The position numbers were made by a program, and so were the translations under genes. From Shigella phage Sf25, in the sequence record MF327009: a DNA stretch of 64,000 nt; one strand, 5' to 3'. Shown here piece by piece: positions 4,010-43,331 of this stretch (its first letter is position 1; each line of letters opens with the position of its first letter). Under the pieces are notes generated by a model, which searched no databases, was not told where the DNA came from, and was given only the letters and a program-made list of their open reading frames with translations.

Positions 4010-4326
4010 CTAGAATCGCAAGAACTTCCACACGAATCGCCCGTCCATACATGAACAGGAACATTAGTGTCATATGAATCAGAACTAGACTGTGTATTCT
4101 GCGTATTAGATGATGTAGTAGGTGTTGACCAGCGCCAAGGATTTTTATAATATTCTTGGGCTTCTTCATAAGTCATAGTAACTGCTTCTACTGTTCCATC
4201 TCCCATATAAACATATTCAACTACAGTTAAAGGAAGGTAGTCATTTGAAATAGGAACTACACCTTCCCCAGGAGTCGTAGAGAAAAAATCCGTAAAGAAA
4301 CTTTTAAACCAATTAAAGATAAACAT
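3985..4326 (-). CDS. hypothetical protein with Cys/Ser-rich C-terminus (113 aa)
   Basis: C-terminal [16 protein letters not shown] tail; start overlaps stop of upstream ORF. Confidence 0.4.
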
Positions 4327-4957: not shown

Positions 4958-5720
4958 TTAATAGCCTCGATCTTGACGAGCGAAGTTTTCAGCATTTTTC
5001 AGATAATAAAGTTTAAAGATTTCCTCAGCTGACATTCCAAGAGCAATGAATTTATTCATGAAAAAGTGAAATTGGTCAATCAGTTCAAATTTAATTTCAA
5101 GCTGATCTTCAGGAGATAAGTCTTGAATTTTCTTGGATTGCATTTCAGAATAACGTTTCTTCCAAGGTTTCCATACAGCAGAAGCTTCTTTTTCACCATT
5201 ACTCATACCACCAAGAGAAGTATATAGCTCGCGAGTTTCATCTGCGATATAATCGTCTTGGTTTCGCAACCAAGCAAGAACTTCTCCTGCAGTTTCAAGT
5301 GAATCAGGATGACGATTTGTTTCTGGTTTATCATTAGCCAAACGAATCTGTAAATGCCGCTGCATGTCAAATTTTCTTGGATTGCATTTCAGAATAACGT
5401 TTCTTCCAAGGTTTCCATACAGCAGAAGCTTCTTTTTCACCATTACTCATACCACCAAGAGAAGTATATAGCTCGCGAGTTTCATCTGCGATATAATCGT
5501 CTTGGTTTCGCAACCAAGCAAGAACTTCTCCTGCAGTTTCAAGTGAATCAGGATGACGATTTGTTTCTGGTTTATCATTAGCCAAACGAATCTGTAAATG
5601 CCGCTGCATGTCAAGCATAACCTGCAATGGGTCAATACTGTGCATAATATACTCAGCATATGCACGATTTGCTTTATCAACACCTTCGATCAAATGAGCA
5701 CATTCATTAAAGTGAGCCAT
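4958..5720 (-). pseudogene. 56: gene 56 dCTPase/dUTPase, frameshifted by an internal 244-bp tandem duplication
   Basis: Both ORF pieces (5367-5735 and 4958-5443) carry the same segment; N-terminus MAHFNECAHLIEGVDKANRAY and C-terminus ...KNAENFARQDRGY match T4 gp56; 244 is not a multiple of 3. Confidence 0.7.
5126..5613. repeat. perfect tandem duplication, 2 x 244 bp, inside gene 56
   Basis: 5126-5369 is identical to 5370-5613. Confidence 0.9.
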
Positions 5721-5780: not shown

Positions 5781-7120
<1,340 letters not shown>

Positions 7121-7139
7121 TATATCATCCTCAGCAATT

Positions 7140-7176
7140 TGTTTTATAATACCATAACAAGCTGAGAAAGTAAACA
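7140..7176 (-). promoter_or_regulatory. T4-type early promoter (GTTTAC N18 TATTAT)
   Basis: gtaaac at 7170-7175 on plus strand; -10 TATTAT; followed by GAGGATGA RBS and the ATG at 7120. Confidence 0.5.
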
Positions 7177-7213
7177 AATTTATGATAAATATTAATTTAA
7201 AGGAGGACGACGC

Positions 7214-7414
7214 ATGGTACAAAAATTAATGGCACTTGTTAATGCCATCAAAGGTAATAAAAAACGTATAGCTTTTACTATTTCTGCTATGGTAGGAATT
7301 TTACTCTGGAACTTTATTTTATCACCTGTTGCAATTGCACATGGTATTAATATTCCAGTAGTTACTCTTGATACATTCGTAGATTTAGCATTTGCTTTAG
7401 TTGGGTTAATTTAA
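7214..7414 (+). CDS. small hydrophobic protein (66 aa), plus strand
   Basis: AAGGAGGA Shine-Dalgarno 6-8 nt before the ATG at 7214; two hydrophobic segments; fills the gap between gene 61 stop and the next minus gene. Confidence 0.4.
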   Translation: MVQKLMALVNAIKGNKKRIAFTISAMVGILLWNFILSPVAIAHGINIPVVTLDTFVDLAFALVGLI

Positions 7415-8439
7415 ATCTTAGCATATTTAGATAACCTCATTTTAGCCATCAACCCCTGGGCAATATTATTTTTCATATATTCCATAATTTGTTCAGGGGT
7501 TGCACCTTCCTTTCTAATCATATCATTAACATCTTTTGATTTCCAGGGAGATTTATCCCAAAACATAACTCTTTCTCCTGCATCAACTAATTTAGTCATT
7601 CGTTTGATAGTGTCAGGGTGACGAGGTTCATTATCTAAAACCCACACTCGTCTATCTTTAAATGGAACAACTTCTAGGTCTAATTGACCACCCGTAATAG
7701 CTATACCATTTTCAATAAAAAGTGAATCTATAGGTCCTTCTAGAACATATACATCACCATCTTTAACTCGTTCAACACCGTAAATTTTTGTTGCCTCAGG
7801 ATAAGCTTTGATGGTGATATACTTTTGTGGAGCATCTTTCTTTAATGCACGACCTTGAAAAGACTCAGCTTTTCCGTTAGCATTATAAATTGGAATAACA
7901 AGACGAGGCTCAGAAATTTCCTTTTTGTATGTTCCCGGTGCTATGCTATTAACTAATTTAGGCCATTCGGTTGTAAACCAAAGATATTTCCATTTATCCT
8001 TTGGAATACAACGAGCTTTTACATATTTTATAATTGGATGGTCTTCCGCCAGTTTATCTAATCTAACGCATGACGGAAGAGATTTAATTATTTTCTTCTC
8101 AGGCTGTTTAGGAAGTTCTTTAGGTTTTTCTACTGGACGACTTTTACCTTTTTCTTTTCTTATTTCAAAGATATACTCACGATATAAATCAGGTTCAAAC
8201 TCCTTTAAATATATTCCGATTGGTGCATGATAGTTACAGTTATAACAATGAATATTTCCTTCATTATTATCACCATAATACCATCCACGGGCTTTATTTT
8301 GGTCGGTTTTTGAATCTCCACAAACAGGGCATCTAAACCGCAACTTAAAGGTTGAACTATTATTTACTTGTGTAAATTTAGGTAAATGAGCTAATGCACG
8401 GTATGCAAACTCATTATCAATCCAAGGTATTGATGACAT
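7411..8439 (-). CDS. 61: DNA primase gp61
   Basis: 342 aa; zinc ribbon CPVCGDSK...CYNC; length and position match T4 gp61. Confidence 0.85.
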   Translation of the reverse strand: MSSIPWIDNEFAYRALAHLPKFTQVNNSSTFKLRFRCPVCGDSKTDQNKARGWYYGDNNEGNIHCYNCNYHAPIGIYLKEFEPDLYREYIFEIRKEKGKSRPVEKPKELPKQPEKKIIKSLPSCVRLDKLAEDHPIIKYVKARCIPKDKWKYLWFTTEWPKLVNSIAPGTYKKEISEPRLVIPIYNANGKAESFQGRALKKDAPQKYITIKAYPEATKIYGVERVKDGDVYVLEGPIDSLFIENGIAITGGQLDLEVVPFKDRRVWVLDNEPRHPDTIKRMTKLVDAGERVMFWDKSPWKSKDVNDMIRKEGATPEQIMEYMKNNIAQGLMAKMRLSKYAKI

Positions 8440-13963: not shown

Positions 13964-14808
13964 TCACCGTTATAATCTTTTTTCACAATATGAGTTTCGC
14001 CAGTATTCCACCAATGATCAACCAAGTAAAAATGACGAGAATATACATGAAGACTTCCAACATTCCATATAATAGAACCTGCTTTATACTGACGAGTTGA
14101 ATCGCCGGCATTCAAATCAGATACTAATTTATCTAATACGTATTTTTGCCATGCATAATCATTACGGAATCCGAAGACCACGTCATTTGAGCGCATGCTT
14201 ACTACTGCATTGACTTTCTTATCACGAATCAGGTACTGTACTGTATTAGTACACATGAAATCTGACATACCATCTTTATTGTAGTCAAATTGCATGGATG
14301 GACGAGTCATGCTTACTACTGCATTGACTTTCTTATCACGAATCAGGTACTGTACTGTATTAGTACACATGAAATCTGACATACCATCTTTATTGTAGTC
14401 AAATTGCATGGATGGACGAGTATAAATCATGATACCACGTCGAGAATCAGGATTTTGACCAAGTTCAGCTAAACACATATCATACTGGGCATAGTTATCT
14501 TCTGACCAAATAGCCCAACCATAATTCGAGTTAATTTCGCCTTTAGAAGATGCTACCTGCTGCCAAATCTTTGGTGTTTCGCCTGGAATATCTTTGACAA
14601 ACAGACTTTGAGACTTGTACCATTCAAGTTCACGCTGAATGTATTCATCATTAAGAGCGCCAAAAATAAAGGGTTCATCTGCTACAAATGATGCGCCAAT
14701 AATTTCAATAGTTTTAACACCGGTTTTATCAACTACGAAATCTTTTTCTTTTAATGCAAGCCCCAAATGAAGACGGATTTCTTCAACTGTCATAAAGTCA
14801 CTAATCAT
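13954..14808 (-). CDS. 42: dCMP hydroxymethylase gp42, with in-frame 38-aa internal duplication
   Basis: 284 aa, 38 more than T4 gp42 (246), exactly the duplicated block SMTRPSMQFDYNKDGMSDFMCTNTVQYLIRDKKVNAVV. Confidence 0.85.
   Translation of the reverse strand: MISDFMTVEEIRLHLGLALKEKDFVVDKTGVKTIEIIGASFVADEPFIFGALNDEYIQRELEWYKSQSLFVKDIPGETPKIWQQVASSKGEINSNYGWAIWSEDNYAQYDMCLAELGQNPDSRRGIMIYTRPSMQFDYNKDGMSDFMCTNTVQYLIRDKKVNAVVSMTRPSMQFDYNKDGMSDFMCTNTVQYLIRDKKVNAVVSMRSNDVVFGFRNDYAWQKYVLDKLVSDLNAGDSTRQYKAGSIIWNVGSLHVYSRHFYLVDHWWNTGETHIVKKDYNGEWK
14194..14421. repeat. perfect tandem duplication, 2 x 114 bp, inside gene 42
   Basis: 14194-14307 is identical to 14308-14421; in-frame. Confidence 0.9.
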
Positions 14809-16028: not shown

Positions 16029-18872
16029 TCAGCCAAACAGGAAGTCTAACGAAGCTTTTTCTTCATAGTCCATACCAGCCGATTCACACATGCCTGCAAG
16101 CGGTTTAACAAACGATTTTTGGAACAAAGTTGAGTAGTCAATCCAAGACAGTACGTCAGAACGAATTTCTTTTGGAAGTTCTGTACCCGACGGCCAAGCA
16201 ATGCATTTGTCACCAAATGGATTTCCTTCACGCAATGGAAGAACCATTACTTTATTTCCATCCAAAATTGGAGCTACACCTAAACCGCTAACAGCTCGAC
16301 GATAAGTTAGCACACCACGAATATGGAACGGACATTTAAATCCTGGCCAACCTTTATCATCATATTTCGCTATATCGTTCGCAGTTTTTACTTCAGCAAT
16401 AACTTTATAGTCAAGTTGACGATATTCTTTCTCGAAGTTCTTGTAATATTCTTGGACAGACTCTTCACCTTCCTGAAGAATACGACGAATACTTTCTTCG
16501 AGAGCTTCTTGGACCGCTTTAGGCGTTGAACTCTGCTGAGTTTCCATACCCATGATTTTTAGATGCGGTTCAGCAAATCGCTTATCTTCCATATCATATA
16601 CGTTCAGAGCATAACGCTTTTTCGCTTTCCAAAATCCGCCAACGCCCTTTGAACCAAGTGGAGGGCAAGAAATAGCTTCACGGTCCATATGCATCAGATG
16701 CTCGCGGTTATTCATATAATCACATAACTCACGATATGCAACATCAATCATAGGTTCCATCTTTTTCTTACCGAACTGATTCATGAATTCAACTAAATCG
16801 TTCTGCTCTTTGAATCGGTCAAGACCAACTTTTTCAATAACTTTATCTACACAAACATATACCGAATCAGTATCACCTGCTGCAATGAAATCTTCGCCAT
16901 TAGTTCCGCATACTTTATTCAGATATTCATTAATTTTACGAGCAATCCACTGAATACCAACTTGGCCGAAAATTGTGATAGCAGTAGCATTTCGCAAATC
17001 ATAGTAACGGAAATGAATATTACCAAGAGCACCATAAAGACTGTTAATAAGAATTTTACGGTTCAGCTGATTTGTGTTAGCAAGTGTAGCTGCTTTTTCA
17101 CACTCTTCGATCAAACTATTAAGAACAGATTCGGTGTAATTCGATAGTTCATTTAAGAAATCATCACTGAACTTAACATATCGTTCAACTTCTGGTTTAG
17201 TTGAGCAAGACCCTGCGCCTTTCATAATAATCTTTTTAATAGCTTCGGCATTCATTTCTTCAGCGAACATTTTCTTTTTCCAATCTTTACGCTGGAAAAA
17301 TACTTTAGCGATTTCCTTTGGAATGATACCTTCTTGATGCTTATCATACATCCATCCATTCGGAGAACAAGAATATTCATCACTCGGTTTAGGAGCTGTT
17401 CCTGCGATATATTCATGAATTGGATGAACTTTAAACTGACCACGAATAGTCTCAGGACTAATGTTAACCTGACGAATAATGCTCGGATACAGAGACGTCA
17501 AGTCAAAACTCATAATATATCGACGAGCAATTGGTTTAGGTTCAAACACAAATGCACCCGGAAAACTCTGTTTAACGTGCGAACCTTGTTGAGGAATAAC
17601 CTTATGTTCACCTTTCAATGAGTTAAAAATAATAGCATCCCAAGTTTTAATAGGACTCATTACACCGGAAAAAGGCATTTTAGCGTAATAAGACATACTT
17701 AAAACTAGATCGATAAACCCGCGAATTTTATCAATTGCTTGAACTGATTCTACGTCAATGATGTTATAACTAATGTATCGTTGATGATTAGTCTCACGAA
17801 GTTTATTAATAGGACCGTCGTATGGTAATTTACCTTTTTTGGTTTCATGTTGAGCAACTGATTCCAAAGAGAATGACGGCAAATTAGTAAAAGCGAATTT
17901 CTTGTACAAATCTAAATAATCAAGAATAGATACGCCATCAATAGAATAAATTTCTTTGCTGCCGTACATATTTTGAATTAGTTTGGATTTTACCCGACCG
18001 ATTGGAGAGAAACGTTTCATACTGCGTTCGCCTAGAATCATTTTAACACGATTCATGATATATGGAACGTCAAACCCCTCAATATTCCAACCGGTAAAAA
18101 TAGCAGGTCGTTTCTGTTCCCAGAGATTGATATATTCCATGAGCATATCACGCTCATTATCGAATGGCATATAAATTACTCGGTCAAGAATTTCTTGAGG
18201 AACTTCATCACCACCTTCACAGTCAAGCTTAGCAGCTAACTTTGCATCCCATTTTGATACTGAACCGTACATTGAATTCAAAAGGTCGAAAACATAAAAA
18301 CGATCGTCAATTGAATCGTAATGAGTGATAGCATCAATTTCATATTCAGCTTTCATTGGGTCAGGAAATTTATCACCAGTAACCTCAATGTCACAGTTAG
18401 CTACACGAACACCGTACATTGAATTCAAAAGGTCGAAAACATAAAAACGATCGTCAATTGAATCGTAATGAGTGATAGCATCAATTTCATATTCAGCTTT
18501 CATTGGGTCAGGAAATTTATCACCAGTAACCTCAATGTCACAGTTAGCTACACGAACAAATTTTCGGTCATAAACAATTTCTGAACCATATGTATCACTG
18601 ATATAAGCGAGTTTAAAATCGTTCATACCGAGAGCTTCGAGACCGATGTCTTCCATTCGCTTCATCCAATCTCGAGCATCTTTCATTGATGGAAATTTTT
18701 GAGGAGCGCAGTTTTTACCATAGATGTCTTTGTACTTTGACTCTTCCTTACAATGCCTAAACATAGTTGGAAGATATTCTACTTCACGAGTACGTTCCTT
18801 TCCATTTTCATCAATATAACGTTCAACAATATTATTTCCGACTGTTTCAATAGAGATATAAAATTCTTTCAT
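16029..18872 (-). CDS. 43: DNA polymerase gp43 (family B), with in-frame 49-aa internal duplication
   Basis: 947 aa, 49 more than T4 gp43 (898), exactly the duplicated block VRVANCDIEVTGDKFPDPMKAEYEIDAITHYDSIDDRFYVFDLLNSMYG; exonuclease and polymerase motifs present. Confidence 0.9.
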   Translation of the reverse strand: MKEFYISIETVGNNIVERYIDENGKERTREVEYLPTMFRHCKEESKYKDIYGKNCAPQKFPSMKDARDWMKRMEDIGLEALGMNDFKLAYISDTYGSEIVYDRKFVRVANCDIEVTGDKFPDPMKAEYEIDAITHYDSIDDRFYVFDLLNSMYGVRVANCDIEVTGDKFPDPMKAEYEIDAITHYDSIDDRFYVFDLLNSMYGSVSKWDAKLAAKLDCEGGDEVPQEILDRVIYMPFDNERDMLMEYINLWEQKRPAIFTGWNIEGFDVPYIMNRVKMILGERSMKRFSPIGRVKSKLIQNMYGSKEIYSIDGVSILDYLDLYKKFAFTNLPSFSLESVAQHETKKGKLPYDGPINKLRETNHQRYISYNIIDVESVQAIDKIRGFIDLVLSMSYYAKMPFSGVMSPIKTWDAIIFNSLKGEHKVIPQQGSHVKQSFPGAFVFEPKPIARRYIMSFDLTSLYPSIIRQVNISPETIRGQFKVHPIHEYIAGTAPKPSDEYSCSPNGWMYDKHQEGIIPKEIAKVFFQRKDWKKKMFAEEMNAEAIKKIIMKGAGSCSTKPEVERYVKFSDDFLNELSNYTESVLNSLIEECEKAATLANTNQLNRKILINSLYGALGNIHFRYYDLRNATAITIFGQVGIQWIARKINEYLNKVCGTNGEDFIAAGDTDSVYVCVDKVIEKVGLDRFKEQNDLVEFMNQFGKKKMEPMIDVAYRELCDYMNNREHLMHMDREAISCPPLGSKGVGGFWKAKKRYALNVYDMEDKRFAEPHLKIMGMETQQSSTPKAVQEALEESIRRILQEGEESVQEYYKNFEKEYRQLDYKVIAEVKTANDIAKYDDKGWPGFKCPFHIRGVLTYRRAVSGLGVAPILDGNKVMVLPLREGNPFGDKCIAWPSGTELPKEIRSDVLSWIDYSTLFQKSFVKPLAGMCESAGMDYEEKASLDFLFG
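18264..18557. repeat. perfect tandem duplication, 2 x 147 bp, inside gene 43
   Basis: 18264-18410 is identical to 18411-18557; in-frame. Confidence 0.9.
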
Positions 18873-30929: not shown

Positions 30930-31400
30930 TTAATCATGTTTCCACACCCCATCGGTATTTGACCAAAGTCGCTGATTATCTGATCCTCGCCACAGCTTTT
31001 TGGTCGGAAGATTTTTCTCATACTTCCCATCAATAATAACATCAACATATTTAAGCATTTCTAGTTGTTTAATATCTTCAAATTTATATCCTGTCCACAA
31101 CCAAATGCTTTTATTGGGATAAAGATTTTTTACTGTTTGAACAATGCAATGAACAACATCTCGGTTATCAGGATAGAGAGGGTCTCCTCCAGTTATAGTT
31201 AATCCTTCTATATAATCATTATTCAAACATTCAATTAATTGTTCTAGTGTTTCACCAGTGAATGGAACACCGTTTCTAGCGTTCCATGTTGATTTATTAT
31301 AACACCCTTCGCATTTATGCAAACAACCTGTAACGAAAAGAACGACCCTGCAACCAGGGCCATTCACAAAATCACAAGGATAAAATCTATCATAATTCAT
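30930..31400 (-). CDS. nrdG: anaerobic ribonucleotide reductase activase NrdG (radical SAM)
   Basis: 156 aa; cysteine cluster CLHKCEGC. Confidence 0.85.
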   Translation of the reverse strand: MNYDRFYPCDFVNGPGCRVVLFVTGCLHKCEGCYNKSTWNARNGVPFTGETLEQLIECLNNDYIEGLTITGGDPLYPDNRDVVHCIVQTVKNLYPNKSIWLWTGYKFEDIKQLEMLKYVDVIIDGKYEKNLPTKKLWRGSDNQRLWSNTDGVWKHD

Positions 31401-31654
31401 TGATGCTTAACCCTATGCATGATTTCTTTATTTTTACCGAGATTAAATCCGCGCTCGTTAGGATTTCCCAAATAACCAACACCCTTCGCATTTATGCAAA
31501 CAACCTGTAACGAAAAGAACGACCCTGCAACCAGGGCCATTCACAAAATCACAAGGATAAAATCTATCATAATTCATTGATGCTTAACCCTATGCATGAT
31601 TTCTTTATTTTTACCGAGATTAAATCCGCGCTCGTTAGGATTTCCCAAATAACC
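31301..31654. repeat. perfect tandem duplication, 2 x 177 bp, spanning the nrdD 3' end, intergenic region and nrdG 5' end
   Basis: 31301-31477 is identical to 31478-31654; leaves a nrdG 5' fragment (ATG at 31577) between intact nrdD and intact nrdG. Confidence 0.9.
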
Positions 31655-35738: not shown

Positions 35739-36128
35739 TTAATCCAAAATATTATTAGGCATTGGTTGAACACTCACAAGTTCTTTAAAGAACTCAGTAG
35801 AGTCAGGCAATTTAACCATTTCCGGAGCATGCTTACTGAATTTATGTTTACATTGACGGCATTTATATTCAAGCTCTGGTTTACGCCAGTTAATCAATTG
35901 AACTTGTTCAGTACCGCATTCAGGGCAATTAGGAACGTTTTTAGAAGCCCTTTCACGACGTTCAACCATAACCATAATAGCATCCCATGCTGGAGGTTTA
36001 AAATCTAAATCGTCGCAGCCGTGAATCTTTCCACGCATTTCCATATCATCTTCCTCACCAGCCATAATAATTTTAATTAAACTGGAATTACTTGAAGCTG
36101 CAATGTCTTCTAATAAACGCTTTTTCAT
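35739..36128 (-). CDS. zinc-ribbon protein (129 aa)
   Basis: CPEC...CRQC four-Cys zinc-ribbon motif. Confidence 0.45.
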
Positions 36129-36874
36129 TTCAATACCTCAATAGCATTACGTAAACCATTTGCTTTTGCATTAAGAGCTTTTAACAATTTGGTGTGTTCT
36201 GCAATTTGGGCTTCAACTTCAATCAAACGGGCATTGAGATATTCACGTTCTTCACTCAGATTATCAACCTTTTCTACTTTAGGCTCTTTTACAACTGTCT
36301 TATATGTATTAGGGTTCTTCAGTTTAATTAGAATGCGTGAACTGTATAACATTGAACCATTATCTTCGGTTTCGTCATACATTTCCACTACGTCCATAAT
36401 TTTTAACATCATGCGGAGTTTATAAGACAACGAACGAATAGTTTTGTTGTGCTTATTAATTTCTTTAGCTGTCATGGTGCCAAGATTACGTGAGTAATAA
36501 TAAGGAACCTGGATATTAATTAATACTGATGAACCACCTGGCTTGTGTGTTACTTCATCAGCAATAACCCAGTCCTTAACATGAACTGTATTTGTACGGT
36601 CATCGCCCGCGGTAAATAGTTTGCGAGCATGCTTAAAAAGCATATTCACTTGGTCATTGAATTGACAAGCAAATTTATCAGCAAATTTAGTTTCAGGAAT
36701 GGTAGAAAACCAATCAGCCAAATGAGTCTTTTTAACATCATTAACAATAGTAAATTCAACCAAATCGGTTATAGATGTCTCAGATTTAATGAAGCTCGGC
36801 TTCATAAAGTTTTTAATGTTCTCATGAGCTACAGTAGAAGATAACATACGAGAACGTTTAAACCATTCAAGCAA
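36125..36874 (-). CDS. hypothetical protein with C-terminal coiled coil (249 aa)
   Basis: C-terminal 45 aa heptad-like ([42 protein letters not shown]). Confidence 0.45.
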   Translation of the reverse strand: MLEWFKRSRMLSSTVAHENIKNFMKPSFIKSETSITDLVEFTIVNDVKKTHLADWFSTIPETKFADKFACQFNDQVNMLFKHARKLFTAGDDRTNTVHVKDWVIADEVTHKPGGSSVLINIQVPYYYSRNLGTMTAKEINKHNKTIRSLSYKLRMMLKIMDVVEMYDETEDNGSMLYSSRILIKLKNPNTYKTVVKEPKVEKVDNLSEEREYLNARLIEVEAQIAEHTKLLKALNAKANGLRNAIEVLK

Positions 36875-37059
36875 ATTGCCTAACGAATGAGAATAAGCGT
36901 TTTGAGTATCTTTACAGATATGATTTTCCTGACCAACATATTGAAGGAAATCACGAAGAATATTATTGATTACTGCTCTGTGTCCTATCTGATAATTACG
37001 ATGTTTAGTAATAAGACTGTGGTTAATGGTTTATACTCCGAGCCATACTTGGCTTTAAA

Positions 37060-38361
37060 TTACTTAATTAACTGTAAAGCTTGTTCAAGACGATCAAGAC
37101 GATTAACGGATTCTTCCCAAATCTTTTTAGCACTTTCATATTCTTTTTCTGCTTTATTTTTAATTTCTAAAGCTTCTTTATAAGCTTTTTCTAGTGCAAT
37201 AACTTCTGGACGAATTTCTATTGGCTCAGGAGAATCATCGAGCCAATCCATCAATTCTTCAAGTGTGGTTTCTTCTTTAGGAGCATTCACAATTTCTTCA
37301 CATTTCTTCTGATGAATTTCTTTATCTGTTAGTGAATAAGCACATTTCACTTCACGAAGACTAATTACAATTTTATATCCTTCCCATCCGCATATATTCT
37401 TAAAAGGATATGTATGAATATTTTCTACTGTTTCCATACAAAGTAATGCAGTCTCTAACTGACGAGTTATAGTGCTAGCAATTGAGAAAAATTTATTAAT
37501 ATTCTTTTGGTTAGCGTTTGGTGTAAAAAATCCATAATTCACAAAAATAGCTACTTTATTTTCATCAAGCTCATATTCTAGTGAATAAGCACATTTCACT
37601 TCACGAAGACTAATTACAATTTTATATCCTTCCCATCCGCATATATTCTTAAAAGGATATGTATGAATATTTTCTACTGTTTCCATACAAAGTAATGCAG
37701 TCTCTAACTGACGAGTTATAGTGCTAGCAATTGAGAAAAATTTATTAATATTCTTTTGGTTAGCGTTTGGTGTAAAAAATCCATAATTCACAAAAATAGC
37801 TACTTTATTTTCATCAAGCTCATATTCTTTTACGATAATCATATCAGAAGCCAAAGGATGAATTTGACGATAATCGCCATAACATAATTTAGAAGCTGAT
37901 TTTAGAATTTGTCCTTTGAAAAGTCTGAAATTACTAATCCAACGACGAGTAAAAATATTCTCAGGGTCTTCTTTATTATTAAGATGATAAGAATTAACAT
38001 CACCGAACCAATTATATCCTACTACATCTTTGGTTCGTTTAATTTCTTTCCCAAAATTACCAAGAATATCCCGATTAACCAAATATGAAAGAAGACGAGA
38101 CTCTTTAAAGGTTTTCTTGATATTATCTTTATCTACACGGCTAGAAATTTTACGAATTTCATGAATAAATTTAGTAGAAGAAACAATACTTGCATCAACA
38201 CTATTGAGCCATTGATTGATAATGGAAAGAACGATATTTTGACCAAACATCGGTATAGCTTTATCATCAATAACGCTATTGAATGATTTGATATATTCGT
38301 TACGAGTCATATTAATCTCCTCAGTAGAAAGTAAGAACATTATACCACATCCTTGTGGCAA
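37060..38361 (-). CDS. hypothetical protein with C-terminal coiled coil and in-frame 83-aa internal duplication
   Basis: 433 aa as given; block YELDENKVAIFVNYGFF...REVKCAYSL occurs twice; likely real start MTRNEYIKSF. Confidence 0.45.
   Translation of the reverse strand: MPQGCGIMFLLSTEEINMTRNEYIKSFNSVIDDKAIPMFGQNIVLSIINQWLNSVDASIVSSTKFIHEIRKISSRVDKDNIKKTFKESRLLSYLVNRDILGNFGKEIKRTKDVVGYNWFGDVNSYHLNNKEDPENIFTRRWISNFRLFKGQILKSASKLCYGDYRQIHPLASDMIIVKEYELDENKVAIFVNYGFFTPNANQKNINKFFSIASTITRQLETALLCMETVENIHTYPFKNICGWEGYKIVISLREVKCAYSLEYELDENKVAIFVNYGFFTPNANQKNINKFFSIASTITRQLETALLCMETVENIHTYPFKNICGWEGYKIVISLREVKCAYSLTDKEIHQKKCEEIVNAPKEETTLEELMDWLDDSPEPIEIRPEVIALEKAYKEALEIKNKAEKEYESAKKIWEESVNRLDRLEQALQLIK
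37331..37828. repeat. perfect tandem duplication, 2 x 249 bp
   Basis: 37331-37579 is identical to 37580-37828; in-frame. Confidence 0.9.
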
Positions 38362-38367
38362 AGTAAA

Positions 38368-39642
38368 CTAGTTCAGTGCATTTAGTGCATTGTTCAGTTT
38401 AGAACGTTGCTTCGTGAGATTTTTGACTTTTTCTTGTGCTTTTTCTAGCATCTTTTCAGCTTCTAACACTTCATTGGTCGCTTTAACGAGTTCATCATCT
38501 ACTGCCTTAAGGGACTTCTCAATCGCATCCGCGTGCCATTTTTCAACAGGTTTAAGACTCGGATTTTCAATAGGAAGAAAATTCACTTTATTGAATTTCC
38601 ATGCATCTTTATTACCTGAACTATACATCCAAAATTTAGGATCGTTTGATGAGTAATTGGATAAATTTAAATTTAAGTTATCTTGCACTTCTTGCTTTTT
38701 CTCTTGCGTGACTTCGTCCTTTCTCAAAAAATCGTATTTAAATGAAACGATCATATCAAGTTCATATGTTGTTGTGTCTAATTTAAATCGTTCGAAATGC
38801 TGTGAAATCTTAGACTGAATAGGAAGAAAATTCACTTTATTGAATTTCCATGCATCTTTATTACCTGAACTATACATCCAAAATTTAGGATCGTTTGATG
38901 AGTAATTGGATAAATTTAAATTTAAGTTATCTTGCACTTCTTGCTTTTTCTCTTGCGTGACTTCGTCCTTTCTCAAAAAATCGTATTTAAATGAAACGAT
39001 CATATCAAGTTCATATGTTGTTGTGTCTAATTTAAATCGTTCGAAATGCTGTGAAATCTTAGACTGAACAGCAGCAACAACATCCATATACTTAAATGCT
39101 TCTGTCAACTGTGATTTAAGACATTCGCAAATTGAAAGAGAATTTTTTGTATTAGGTTTAAAGCTAATTCGTGCAGTTCTATTATTTTCTTTTAATGGTC
39201 TTACTTCCATCTGAAGAGTATAACCATCAAATTTCAGGTTCTTTAAGTTAATATCAGAACCTTTTAATCGACTCGCAGTTGATAAAATTTGCTTTAATTG
39301 TCTACGGAATAGAGCAATAAATCTCCATTCAATACGATAATGATTTGGATTGAAAAATCCAGATGATAAATCGACCTTACTTTGACCAACGCCTTGAACA
39401 AATAGAGGATTTTTATAATCAATAGTTTTACAGAAATCGGTTAGCTGCTCACGAGCAGTCATTTGTGTAATATACCCCGCTTTACTAAAATGACGTAACC
39501 ATTCACTGCTATTCATATATTTAAAGTGAATATCACGATTAACTTTATCAGGGTCTAAATTATTTTGGCACAAAAATGTCATAACATCACGAGTATAGCT
39601 GGCATTACGAATCATATCTTCAATTTGAGAACGAGTTTTCAT
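38368..39642 (-). CDS. hypothetical protein with C-terminal coiled coil and in-frame 83-aa internal duplication
   Basis: 424 aa as given; block ...SKISQHFERFKLDTTTYELDMIVSFKYDF...KVNFLP occurs twice. Confidence 0.45.
   Translation of the reverse strand: MKTRSQIEDMIRNASYTRDVMTFLCQNNLDPDKVNRDIHFKYMNSSEWLRHFSKAGYITQMTAREQLTDFCKTIDYKNPLFVQGVGQSKVDLSSGFFNPNHYRIEWRFIALFRRQLKQILSTASRLKGSDINLKNLKFDGYTLQMEVRPLKENNRTARISFKPNTKNSLSICECLKSQLTEAFKYMDVVAAVQSKISQHFERFKLDTTTYELDMIVSFKYDFLRKDEVTQEKKQEVQDNLNLNLSNYSSNDPKFWMYSSGNKDAWKFNKVNFLPIQSKISQHFERFKLDTTTYELDMIVSFKYDFLRKDEVTQEKKQEVQDNLNLNLSNYSSNDPKFWMYSSGNKDAWKFNKVNFLPIENPSLKPVEKWHADAIEKSLKAVDDELVKATNEVLEAEKMLEKAQEKVKNLTKQRSKLNNALNALN
38569..39066. repeat. 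perfect tandem duplication, 2 x 249 bp
   Basis: 38569-38817 is identical to 38818-39066; in-frame. Confidence 0.9.
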
Positions 39643-39650
39643 GGTGTTCC

Positions 39651-40808
39651 TTAAGATTTAAGTAAATCAACAATTTTAATTAACTTTTCACGCTCGGATT
39701 TAGCTTTACTACTCAGTCCAGATAGTCTGAAAATTTCATCATCATATTGTTGAATAGAAATATTCAGCTCTTCAATCTGTTTATTAAAATAATCAATTTG
39801 TTCAGAATGTTTTTCGTTACTACGAACTGGTACAGGTTTTGTAGGCAATTTAGTTGAACTGGATTCATCCGGGCGATAAATTAAAATACAACTTGAACCA
39901 ATAGGGCATTTTGCACCAGATGAATATTCTAATGTTCCAGCTTCTTTTAAAACTTCAAAAGCTAAACAGAGATGATGCCCCATATTAACATAATCTGTAG
40001 AGTGAGCTCTGATCAGCTCTTCAATCTGTTTATTAAAATAATCAATTTGTTCAGAATGTTTTTCGTTACTACGAACTGGTACAGGTTTTGTAGGCAATTT
40101 AGTTGAACTGGATTCATCCGGGCGATAAATTAAAATACAACTTGAACCAATAGGGCATTTTGCACCAGATGAATATTCTAATGTTCCAGCTTCTTTTAAA
40201 ACTTCAAAAGCTAAACAGAGATGATGCCCCATATTAACATAATCTGTAGAGTGAGCTCTGATGTAATAATCATCTCCACGAATACTAAATTTAAAGCATT
40301 TAAGGTCTTCTGTATTATTGGTCTTAAAAATCATTTGTTTATCTAGACCTTTAGCTAATCGAGCGCCTAATGCTAATAATCGTCGTTGATTTTCCCACAA
40401 ATCCGCAATCATTTGATCGAATGATAATTTCGGCATTAGTCGACCATAAAGGTCATATCCTTTATTATAATTGCGAAGGATTTCACTCGCATTAATACGA
40501 GACAACGCTCCAATTTTATTAAGGGCTTTCATGATGCGATTAGATAAACCCATTCCAGACCCGTTTGTTCGTTGTAAATGTTTATCTAATCCAAACCCAA
40601 TATCAACTTTAAATTTATCTAAAATTTCAGCATGAACATCTCTGTCAATAACATTCAAATCCAAAGTTTGGTTAAATCTATGAAAAAATTTATCTGGCTC
40701 TCCACGACGAAGTACAGTCCATTCATTCAATTTTTTATTAACTAAAGATTTAATTACTGCATTGACATTATTAATTACTACTGACATATTTTCCTCACTC
40801 AATTTCAA
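39651..40808 (-). CDS. hypothetical protein with C-terminal coiled coil and in-frame 83-aa internal duplication
   Basis: 385 aa as given; block RAHSTDYVNMGHHLCLAFEVLKEAGT...NKQIEEL occurs twice. Confidence 0.45.
   Translation of the reverse strand: MKLSEENMSVVINNVNAVIKSLVNKKLNEWTVLRRGEPDKFFHRFNQTLDLNVIDRDVHAEILDKFKVDIGFGLDKHLQRTNGSGMGLSNRIMKALNKIGALSRINASEILRNYNKGYDLYGRLMPKLSFDQMIADLWENQRRLLALGARLAKGLDKQMIFKTNNTEDLKCFKFSIRGDDYYIRAHSTDYVNMGHHLCLAFEVLKEAGTLEYSSGAKCPIGSSCILIYRPDESSSTKLPTKPVPVRSNEKHSEQIDYFNKQIEELIRAHSTDYVNMGHHLCLAFEVLKEAGTLEYSSGAKCPIGSSCILIYRPDESSSTKLPTKPVPVRSNEKHSEQIDYFNKQIEELNISIQQYDDEIFRLSGLSSKAKSEREKLIKIVDLLKS
39765..40262. repeat. perfect tandem duplication, 2 x 249 bp
   Basis: 39765-40013 is identical to 40014-40262; in-frame. 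Confidence 0.9.
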
Positions 40809-41202
40809 TTTTACTAAATATACAGAATAAGATGGAACAGACTATATAAGCACCACACACAGATTGAACTAATACCATTCCAAAGAACCAAACAATATTA
40901 TCAAACAATGTCTGTTTTACGTCGAAAGGACGTAAACTTACAGTAATATTATCGCCTTTTTCTATTGATGAATACATCTCTGGTGAAATATATTCGCTAA
41001 ATCTATAACCGTCTTTGAGTTCATATACGGCAATAAACGATAAACTAGACCCCTTTACTTGAGTTCCTGTAAGGGTATTAACTACAGTAACATCATAATC
41101 TTTATAATGCATATAATCATTAATTGCGTAATAACCATATGCAACTACTACACATAAACAACATATCAATAAATTCAATCTTTTAATTATCAACTGTTTC
41201 AT
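40795..41202 (-). CDS. membrane protein (135 aa)
   Basis: N- and C-terminal hydrophobic segments. Confidence 0.45.
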   Translation of the reverse strand: MKQLIIKRLNLLICCLCVVVAYGYYAINDYMHYKDYDVTVVNTLTGTQVKGSSLSFIAVYELKDGYRFSEYISPEMYSSIEKGDNITVSLRPFDVKQTLFDNIVWFFGMVLVQSVCGAYIVCSILFCIFSKIEIE

Positions 41203-41257
41203 AATAATCTCAGTTAAAAGGGCTTAGAACCATTATACCATCCTTGGTATAAAGCTG

Positions 41258-41785
41258 TTATGCGAGTACCGTCTTTAACCGTTCTTCAAACTTCCGAAGA
41301 GTATTCTGGCGTTCAGCTCTTTGCTTTTTATAAGTTTCAATACGCTCTGAAATGAGAGTGTATCGTTCATTTACTGATTCTTTCATAAAATCAGGAATTT
41401 CACGAGAAGCTTTAATCTCGTCAAATTTATCAATAACAGCTTGCTCTTCAGCAATTAAGTTATCATACATCAAAATATCTTTCTTGATGAACTCAATATC
41501 TTCTTGAGTTACACGAGATAATTTAGATGCTTTATCCTTTTTGTACTGTTCGTTAGTATCACGAGACCAGTGTAATGTACGATTTTTATTCGTATTCTTG
41601 TAAATTTCTACAATACCAATCTCATCAATAATAACGATCCAATTCCAACGTGATTTGTAAATTTGTCCTCCATCAACAGTGATTTCACCTCCGATTGAGA
41701 TGTCGTTAAAGAACTTGCTTTGTGCTTCAGATTTAAATTTACCATCGTTGTAATTTACCAAGTTGAAAATATCTTTAGCGTTCAT
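41258..41785 (-). CDS. hypothetical protein (175 aa)
   Basis: Minus-strand ORF preceded by an early promoter. Confidence 0.45.
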   Translation of the reverse strand: MNAKDIFNLVNYNDGKFKSEAQSKFFNDISIGGEITVDGGQIYKSRWNWIVIIDEIGIVEIYKNTNKNRTLHWSRDTNEQYKKDKASKLSRVTQEDIEFIKKDILMYDNLIAEEQAVIDKFDEIKASREIPDFMKESVNERYTLISERIETYKKQRAERQNTLRKFEERLKTVLA

Positions 41786-43304: not shown

Positions 43305-43331
43305 ATAAAAAAGGGAGCCCGAAGGCTCCCT
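43305..43331 (-). terminator. rho-independent terminator
   Basis: gggagcc-cgaa-ggctccc hairpin followed by UUUUUUU on minus, downstream of the 43333-44346 gene. Confidence 0.6.

Follow-up and report, generated by a model that had tools for sequence, protein, structure and literature searches.

The stretch of DNA studied here, 64,000 nucleotides of the genome of Shigella phage Sf25, a T4-like Tequatrovirus (sequence record MF327009; referred to below as the window), contains five consecutive, closely spaced open reading frames (ORFs), four large and one small, on the minus strand between positions 36125 and 41202. Comparison with related phages identifies the four large ORFs as one-to-one orthologs of T4 nrdC.3, nrdC.4, nrdC.5 and nrdC.6. 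Profile comparisons of all four proteins, together with an equal order of secondary-structure elements in models of NrdC.4 and NrdC.6, indicate that they are paralogs of one protein superfamily, and we consider it fairly probable that they are a tandem, diversifying array of inhibitors of host immunity in which the lesions seen in the Sf25 record are artefacts of assembly.

An initial annotation of this DNA, made from the sequence alone, had described four closely spaced genes on one strand with the same architecture, each ending in a C-terminal coiled coil of about 40 amino acids (aa), and had stated that none could be assigned to a T4 protein. The ORF listing bears out the arrangement, and the analyses below support the architecture and the coiled coil. 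The statement about T4 was mistaken; in T4 these are early, non-essential genes and the block is already known. The ORFs are present at the coordinates listed, but as listed they are corrupted by three 249-bp duplications and by the loss of the nrdC.3 start. We compared the proteins after removing one copy of each duplication.

The nrdC.3 ortholog (36125-37018) is 5'-truncated as recorded. By comparison of its translation with Sf24 NrdC.3, codons 13-309 are in frame and both the Shine-Dalgarno (SD) sequence and the ATG are missing; the match to phrog_1435 is full length (expectation value, E, 8e-116). The nrdC.4 ortholog (37060-38310) encodes 416 aa as recorded and 333 aa after de-duplication, matches phrog_1435 (E 1e-165), is 94-95% identical to NrdC.4 of Sf24 and NR1 and has homologs with PF26897. 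NrdC.3 and NrdC.4 each cover positions 1-334 of the 334 in phrog_1435. The nrdC.5 ortholog (38368-39642) encodes 341 aa when de-duplicated, is 93% identical to T4T nrdC.5 and matches Pfam DUF7235 (PF23882) over positions 1-307 of 307, scoring 406 bits where the cut-off is 30. The nrdC.6 ortholog (39651-40787) encodes 378 aa as recorded and 295 aa de-duplicated and matches phrog_2257 (E 9e-153). The correct translation starts of nrdC.4 and nrdC.6 are the ATGs at 38310 and 40787, and the TTGs upstream of them are wrong.

De-duplicated NrdC.3, NrdC.4, NrdC.5 and NrdC.6 are about 309, 333, 341 and 295 aa long, equal to the proteins of relatives. At the same positions, Sf24, vB_Eco_NR1 and SholemSchwarzbard encode a NrdC.3 of 309 aa, a NrdC.4 of 333 aa, a NrdC.5 of 341 or 330 aa and a NrdC.6 of 295-296 aa. 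The window proteins are 94-99% identical to those of Sf24 and NR1, which are annotated by BLAST to T4 NP_049701-NP_049704. Gene sizes given for T4 in the available part of the gene table in the HIDEN-SEQ supplement also agree with those of the window genes. The order nrdD-49-pin-nrdC-nrdC.1 to nrdC.11 is kept in the window as in Sf24, NR1 and T4; in the relatives, nrdD, 49, pin, nrdC, nrdC.1 and nrdC.2 come before the block and NrdC.7, NrdC.8 and onwards lie beyond NrdC.6. A megablast search of 50,697 phage records returned 740 related Tequatrovirus records, among which Shigella phage Sf24 is nearest (98-99% identity) and none reaches at least 99% over the block.

Common ancestry and architecture of NrdC.3 to NrdC.6

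NrdC.3 and NrdC.4 are related at the level of a simple BLASTP comparison (25.5% identity over 231 aa, E 2e-6), and profile alignment with hhalign gave 97.5% probability (E 6e-12) for this pair and 91.8% probability (E 7.5e-7, 231 columns) for NrdC.4 and NrdC.5. A joint alignment is collinear from the N-terminus through the 'L..AL..LK' end at the C-terminus. When a profile of the NrdC.3-5 superfamily, enriched with distant relatives from an exhaustive HMMER search, was compared with the NrdC.6 family, the match had 90.6% probability (E 1.3e-6) over 122 columns and extended from the last part of the N-domain through the long helix and first hairpin up to and including the second helix.

Structure models point in the same direction. 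The AlphaFold2 model of an NrdC.4 ortholog (P0002; mean predicted local distance difference test score, pLDDT, 83.6) has a helical N-domain at residues 3-84, a small sheet at 88-110, a long helix at 119-142, a beta-hairpin at 158-175, a helix at 185-208, a second beta-hairpin at 212-235, a low-confidence linker and a helix at 285-332. The model of an NrdC.6 ortholog (P0123; mean pLDDT 78.3) has helices at 3-106 and 123-144, a hairpin at 165-178, a helix at 186-199, a hairpin at 204-221, a linker and helices at 242-271 and 277-294, so that the elements follow in equal order in the two models. Foldseek searches with both models found common full-length matches in BFVD (E 1e-4 to 1e-8), namely A0A345AUV5, A0A7G3KGN9, A0A0A0PZG4 and A0A2S1GM98. 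The shared matches belong to distant T4-like phages, among them Acinetobacter phage fHyAci03, Enterobacter phage IME523, Pectobacterium phage PM2 and Erwinia phage Cronus, and have template modelling scores (TM-scores) of only 0.4-0.5. In phage Acj61 the two models match proteins whose accessions, E5E4A1 and E5E4A2, are consecutive. The predicted layout of NrdC.3 to NrdC.6 begins with a helical domain at the N-terminus. An alpha/beta domain follows (long helix, beta-hairpin, helix, beta-hairpin), and a poorly ordered linker leads to the C-terminal heptad helix.

We also examined the C-terminal helix itself. The last 42 aa of each of the four proteins form a single unbroken heptad register of six heptads, encoded on the minus strand at 36128-36253 (NrdC.3), 37063-37188 (NrdC.4), 38371-38496 (NrdC.5) and 39654-39779 (NrdC.6). 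Within these segments the hydrophobic occupancy is 0.83-0.92 at positions a and d, compared with 0.17-0.33 elsewhere. This contrast was reached by 0-66 of 2000 shuffles across the four proteins, and by none of the 2000 for NrdC.5. In the models the terminal region is helical (285-332 in the NrdC.4 ortholog, 242-271 and 277-294 in the NrdC.6 ortholog), and the six heptads surpass the minimum of 4-5 hydrophobic heptads that marks a coiled coil in a predicted helix. Across the family the terminal helix is about 42-48 aa long and ends in a motif like [QE]R..L..A[IL]..L[KN]. Conservation within each family is lowest in the hairpin region, and the C-terminal helix is among the best conserved parts.

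Given the sequence and profile similarity, the shared architecture is best explained by common ancestry and not by convergence. One-to-one orthology with T4 proteins combined with a lack of similarity among the four was the outcome that the initial annotation had set against its own proposal; the orthology was found, and the four proteins are similar to one another. Orthology to T4 NrdC.3 and NrdC.4 (PHROG 1435, PF26897) and to T4 NrdC.6 (PHROG 2257, PF26899) follows from sequence and synteny. Databases hold these two families and DUF7235 as three separate families, whereas the comparisons made here show PF26897/PHROG 1435, DUF7235 and PF26899/PHROG 2257 to be one superfamily with a conserved, predicted coiled-coil tail. 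This link is new here.

NrdC.8 was considered as a fifth member and ruled out (hhalign E 0.55), despite a six-heptad terminal helix. Its N-terminal part is small and of a different kind.

Duplications and deletions in the Sf25 record

Three of the four genes carry an exact tandem duplication of 2 x 249 bp in the record: nrdC.4 at 37330-37827 (residues 163-245 repeated), nrdC.5 at 38569-39066 (residues 193-275) and nrdC.6 at 39764-40261 (residues 176-258). Each is in frame and repeats 83 aa perfectly. In the fourth gene, a 47-bp deletion with its junction at 37019/37020, placed by alignment to Sf24 and SholemSchwarzbard, has removed the SD sequence, the ATG and the first 11 codons of nrdC.3. 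Every relative listed retains this start and aligns to the region in two pieces, with about 474-477 bp against the 430 bp of the query. The nrdC.3 frame is open and homologous up to 37018 with no ATG, and because the deletion took the start, the ORF was listed as 36125-36874, beginning at the internal TTG at 36874.

To find out whether the 249-bp junctions occur elsewhere, we searched with 200-nt junction sequences. None was ever matched as one piece in the 380-499 related phage records (380 for nrdC.4, 492 for nrdC.5 and 499 for nrdC.6), and the nrdC.6 junction was also absent from the metagenome contigs searched. The best records match both halves of a junction at 99.5-100% identity, as two pieces about 249 bp apart. 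These searches replaced scans of IMG/VR with exact junction 22-mers, which gave 0 matches and in which a wild-type control 22-mer also gave 0.

Across the whole window there are eight perfect tandem duplications of two copies each, their periods being 208, 244, 114, 147, 177, 249, 249 and 249 bp, with only 0-2 bp of microhomology at the junctions. Mapping onto Sf24 places the other five over modA.2 and the gap upstream of it (2238-2653, period 208 bp), in gene 56, encoding dCTPase (5126-5614, period 244 bp, frameshifting), in gene 42, encoding dCMP hydroxymethylase (14194-14421, period 114 bp), in gene 43, encoding DNA polymerase (18264-18558, period 147 bp), and across the nrdG/nrdD junction (31301-31654, period 177 bp). 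A de-duplicated alignment to Sf24 also revealed a 139-bp deletion that frameshifts gene 62 (about 19616), a 156-bp deletion in modA (about 1417-1590), a deletion of about 162 bp in mrh.1 (about 4060-4326) and a 335-bp deletion at Sf24 gp155/gp156 (about 4930). The duplication in gene 56 leaves residues 1-117 and 36-172 of gp56 in different frames, and the deletion in gene 62 drops residues 118-164 of gp62, a clamp-loader subunit, and shifts the frame. Genes 56 and 62 are essential in T4. Because both are frameshifted, a plaque-purified phage cannot have the recorded sequence. Some of the accessory-gene deletions relative to Sf24 could be natural variation, but the deletion in gene 62 cannot be.

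Since the same set of lesions disrupts two essential genes, we treat the three 249-bp duplications and the loss of the nrdC.3 start as sequence-assembly artefacts, which, judged from the sequence record, they almost certainly are. The initial annotation had mentioned duplication in these genes; in our judgement it is no biological feature. Perfect identity without microhomology, a size that seems capped at 249 bp, and the companion deletions suggest that neighbouring contigs may have been concatenated with overlaps unmerged and gaps unfilled, which would give duplications and deletions respectively. They are concentrated where the genomes of related phages differ most from one another, and in such parts assemblies tend to break up.

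We weighed the idea that the 249-bp duplications are genuine, recent events in Sf25, in which selection would have expanded a domain of anti-defence proteins, and find it very improbable. All three are in frame (83 codons) and fall in a roughly equal structural region of each paralog, the deposited annotation includes the duplicated NrdC.6, and anti-defence loci do get amplified in evolving T-even phages as segmental amplifications. However, the natural amplifications reported involve whole genes and not 249-bp intragenic pieces, and each repeat begins either within a predicted strand or at its edge, so that a partial domain would have been inserted. Genuine duplication would also have to account for eight perfect duplications in 64 kb, three of equal length, with junctions found in none of about 380-500 related records, and for companion lesions in genes 56 and 62 that are impossible in a plaque-forming phage.

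The lesions have already spread to protein databases. Sf25_gp220 (P0122; 378 aa) equals the nrdC.6 ORF of the window residue for residue, including the 83-aa repeat, and BFVD A0A2K9VMF6 is the same protein, so that NCBI, UniProt and BFVD now hold a 378-aa 'thioredoxin' that does not reflect biology. The name 'thioredoxin' is given to NrdC.3-NrdC.8 proteins in many GenBank and UniProt records, apparently from the gene-name prefix nrdC. None of the NrdC proteins that we scanned matches a thioredoxin family in Pfam.

Function and variability of the nrdC locus

The initial annotation had called the function of all four proteins unknown and had suggested that the nrdC-tk interval often holds host-takeover or anti-defence genes. 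The first point no longer stands for nrdC.5, and the second agrees with the literature. An evolved T4 clone with genome deletions became unable to infect ECOR17, and deletion of dsr1 from the host restored infection (Srikant, Guegler and Laub, eLife 2022, PMC9391042). Plasmid-borne dsr1 shielded MG1655 from the deletion-bearing clone, and expression of T4 nrdC.5 gave infectivity back (PMC9391042). The Sf25 gene at 38368-39642 is the ortholog of T4 nrdC.5 by its identity, equal position and full-length DUF7235, and an anti-Dsr1 role is inferred for it from that 93%-identical T4 protein; the record differs from T4 in its 83-aa repeat, which is foreign to the relatives. Near the block, gp49.2 inhibits OLD (PMC13096335), nrdC.1 inhibits Septu (bioRxiv 10.1101/2025.11.20.689424) and bas37_0203, a 528-bp gene, inhibits Druantia III (bioRxiv 10.1101/2025.11.20.689424). 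Judged by its position and its length, bas37_0203 is the nrdC.8 ortholog. NrdC.3 to NrdC.6 share with this T-even cluster around pin and nrdC the neighbourhood, the early, non-essential character and the variable content. By contrast, gp49.2, NrdC.1 and NrdC.8 are small and unrelated to NrdC.3-6 in sequence, and NrdC.8 has just the terminal heptad helix in common with them. In the available part of the HIDEN-SEQ data, T4 nrdC.3-nrdC.6 are classed as non-essential (bioRxiv 10.1101/2025.11.20.689424).

The locus varies strongly among relatives. In seven Tequatroviruses, the flanking genes 49, nrdC, nrdC.1 and nrdC.8-.10 are 99-100% identical to the window, and nrdC.2, nrdC.3, nrdC.4 and nrdC.5 average 87-92% identity, with two nrdC.3 alleles at only 59-61%. 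In the phages of loci L005, L007 and L008, nrdC.2 alleles of 60-79% and nrdC.3 alleles of 59-61% aa identity lie between flanks of 99-100%. Divergent alleles of nrdC.2/nrdC.3 (35739-37018) between conserved flanks suggest cassette-like exchange. We also observed cases of natural pseudogenisation: an IMG/VR Tequatrovirus (L007, about 7054-8090) has two ORFs in place of an intact nrdC.4, and the nrdC.5-like gene of Shigella phage SP18 is split (L011, 4956-5860). A 299-aa protein from a 167-kb contig (P0120) is a natural chimera in which the middle part of NrdC.5 continues into NrdC.3, of which the C-terminal two-thirds are present. Such a join implies that the paralogs recombined where they share a short, similar motif (FNKVN / FNDQVN), with deletion of nrdC.4.

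Gene content differs between genera as well. Gaprivervirus and Dhakavirus lack nrdC.3 and nrdC.7 and possess nrdC.4, nrdC.6 and an nrdC.5-like gene that is divergent, and Klebsiella phage JD18 has one distant, sequence-confirmed member at the matching syntenic site. Matches in T4-like phages of Acinetobacter, Erwinia, Pectobacterium and Serratia are at the level of structure only; genomic context was checked in JD18. An exhaustive HMMER search of 1.84 billion representative proteins with the superfamily profile gave 18 matches, all phage-like, with no cellular homologs and without recovering NrdC.6, and word-indexed protein searches matched nothing but proteins of T4-like phages and, in bacterial assemblies, contaminating phage sequence. 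Within these collections, the superfamily appears to occur only in T4-like phages.

Because T4 nrdC.5 counters Dsr1, the neighbours are anti-defence genes, the locus is hypervariable and the genes are non-essential, we favour the idea that nrdC.3 to nrdC.6 are an array of immunity inhibitors. The variable globular part of each protein would bind and block one particular bacterial defence protein, and the C-terminal coiled coil would oligomerise the inhibitor. For NrdC.5 the target would be Dsr1, a SIR2-domain, NAD+-depleting enzyme, perhaps by direct binding; nrdC.3, nrdC.4 and nrdC.6 would also be anti-defence genes, with other targets. An analogy is DSAD1, the SPbeta-type inhibitor of DSR2. 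In the part of the literature available, this phage protein disables a sirtuin NADase associated with defence, reportedly by binding. DSAD1 comes from another phage group and its target is DSR2 and not Dsr1, so that the likeness described there is one of function only and not of membership.

The terminal helices could also be read in another way. The four proteins, perhaps with NrdC.8, might form one hetero-oligomeric complex through these helices and carry out one task in host takeover, possibly together with NrdC.7 at the membrane. The terminal heptad helices all share their register relative to the C-terminus as well as a similar end motif, the helix is better conserved than the globular part, and nrdC.7, nrdC.6 and nrdC.5 are co-oriented with intergenic gaps of 7-8 bp. 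We nevertheless regard a single complex as unlikely, for plasmid-expressed nrdC.5 alone rescues the T4 deletion clone (the extent of its deletions being unchecked) on Dsr1 cells, and members are pseudogenised individually in nature. The variation in copy number by genus, with nrdC.3 and nrdC.7 absent in Gaprivervirus and Dhakavirus and one confirmed member in JD18, would hardly be tolerable for such a complex.

Neither structure nor sequence assigns an enzymatic or a binding domain to these proteins, and the family has no solved structural relative that is informative. Sequence searches of the PDB with both family profiles gave no match, and PADLOC models gave no match at E <= 0.1 for NrdC.3, NrdC.4, NrdC.5, NrdC.6 or NrdC.8. 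Beyond DUF7235, Pfam and NCBIfam returned only sub-threshold matches (integrase SAM-like domain, PHL, BipA_C and coiled-coil families), which we did not adopt. Residues 30-86 of NrdC.3 (about 36870-37010) weakly resemble the N-terminal SAM-like core-binding domain of tyrosine recombinases, with sub-threshold values for Pfam PF02899 (E 0.12) and the NCBIfam XerD/XerC models (E 0.003-0.03). This likeness, and the location of the genes among those of nucleotide metabolism, would fit proteins whose action is on nucleic acid or on phage metabolism, such as DNA-binding regulators working through the N-terminal helical domain, with the anti-Dsr1 effect of NrdC.5 arising indirectly by suppression of a phage-derived trigger. 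The resemblance probably reflects a shared helical bundle, and we consider this explanation improbable, more so than a single complex.

Several observations weigh against an array of immunity inhibitors. Membership of NrdC.6 depends on the 122-column profile match and on topology, and a shallower profile gave E 0.005 and 7% probability. NrdC.6 is also well conserved (97.7% in the seven Tequatroviruses), without a hypervariable pattern. The literature search gave no phenotype or function for nrdC.3, nrdC.4 or nrdC.6, and in the available part of the HIDEN-SEQ data nrdC.3-nrdC.6 show no significant depletion in one T4 comparison of unspecified condition (bioRxiv 10.1101/2025.11.20.689424). Direct binding of NrdC.5 to Dsr1, and the mechanism, are put forward by inference. 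In addition, going by the sequence, it is formally possible that any single one of the in-frame duplications is real.

A broader proposal, which we offer tentatively, extends the inhibitor array to the distant relatives in T4-like phages. NrdC.3 to NrdC.6 and these relatives might be one modular superfamily of immune inhibitors in which a fast-evolving head picks the target, Dsr1 being the first known and others being NAD+-depleting or unrelated systems, and a conserved coiled-coil tail oligomerises or docks, possibly in mixed oligomers of paralogs.

Flanking features and implications for the family

The small membrane protein that the initial annotation placed next in the row is encoded at 40795-41202 (minus strand). 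It is the nrdC.7 ortholog (phrog_2547), with 135 aa and two hydrophobic segments, one at each terminus (Kyte-Doolittle windows >1.6 at both ends). The nrdC.8 ortholog follows at 41258-41785 on the same strand, identified by a PHROG match and by the position and length of bas37_0203, and ends in a 42-aa heptad helix. The gap between nrdC.7 and nrdC.6 and that between nrdC.6 and nrdC.5 are those of 7-8 bp given above, and the G+C fraction across 36125-41202 is flat at 0.29-0.35, resembling the surrounding DNA.

Two promoter-like sites on the minus strand were found by consensus match only, TTTACT-17-TATAAT with TG in the nrdC.5-nrdC.4 gap (38339-38367) and another upstream of nrdC.7 (41232-41261). 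The sites fall in fitting gaps, yet their total count is no higher than in shuffled sequence. Rfam and tRNA scans of 33-45 kb found nothing relevant. Between the nrdC.11 and nrdC.10 orthologs lies a GC-rich hairpin, AGGGAGCC-TTCG-GGCTCCCT (43312-43331), which has a terminator-like score on both strands and a clear T-run on the minus strand only; vB_Eco_NR1 has terminators annotated at the equivalent place.

What these results add to the known T4 genes is modest, namely the superfamily link and the recognition of a damaged Sf25 record, and will hold little surprise for T4 specialists. They place the sole characterised anti-Dsr1 gene in a four-member family of tandem paralogs with a conserved, predicted coiled-coil tail. 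Through this family link to nrdC.5, nrdC.3, nrdC.4 and nrdC.6 become candidates for counter-defence genes.

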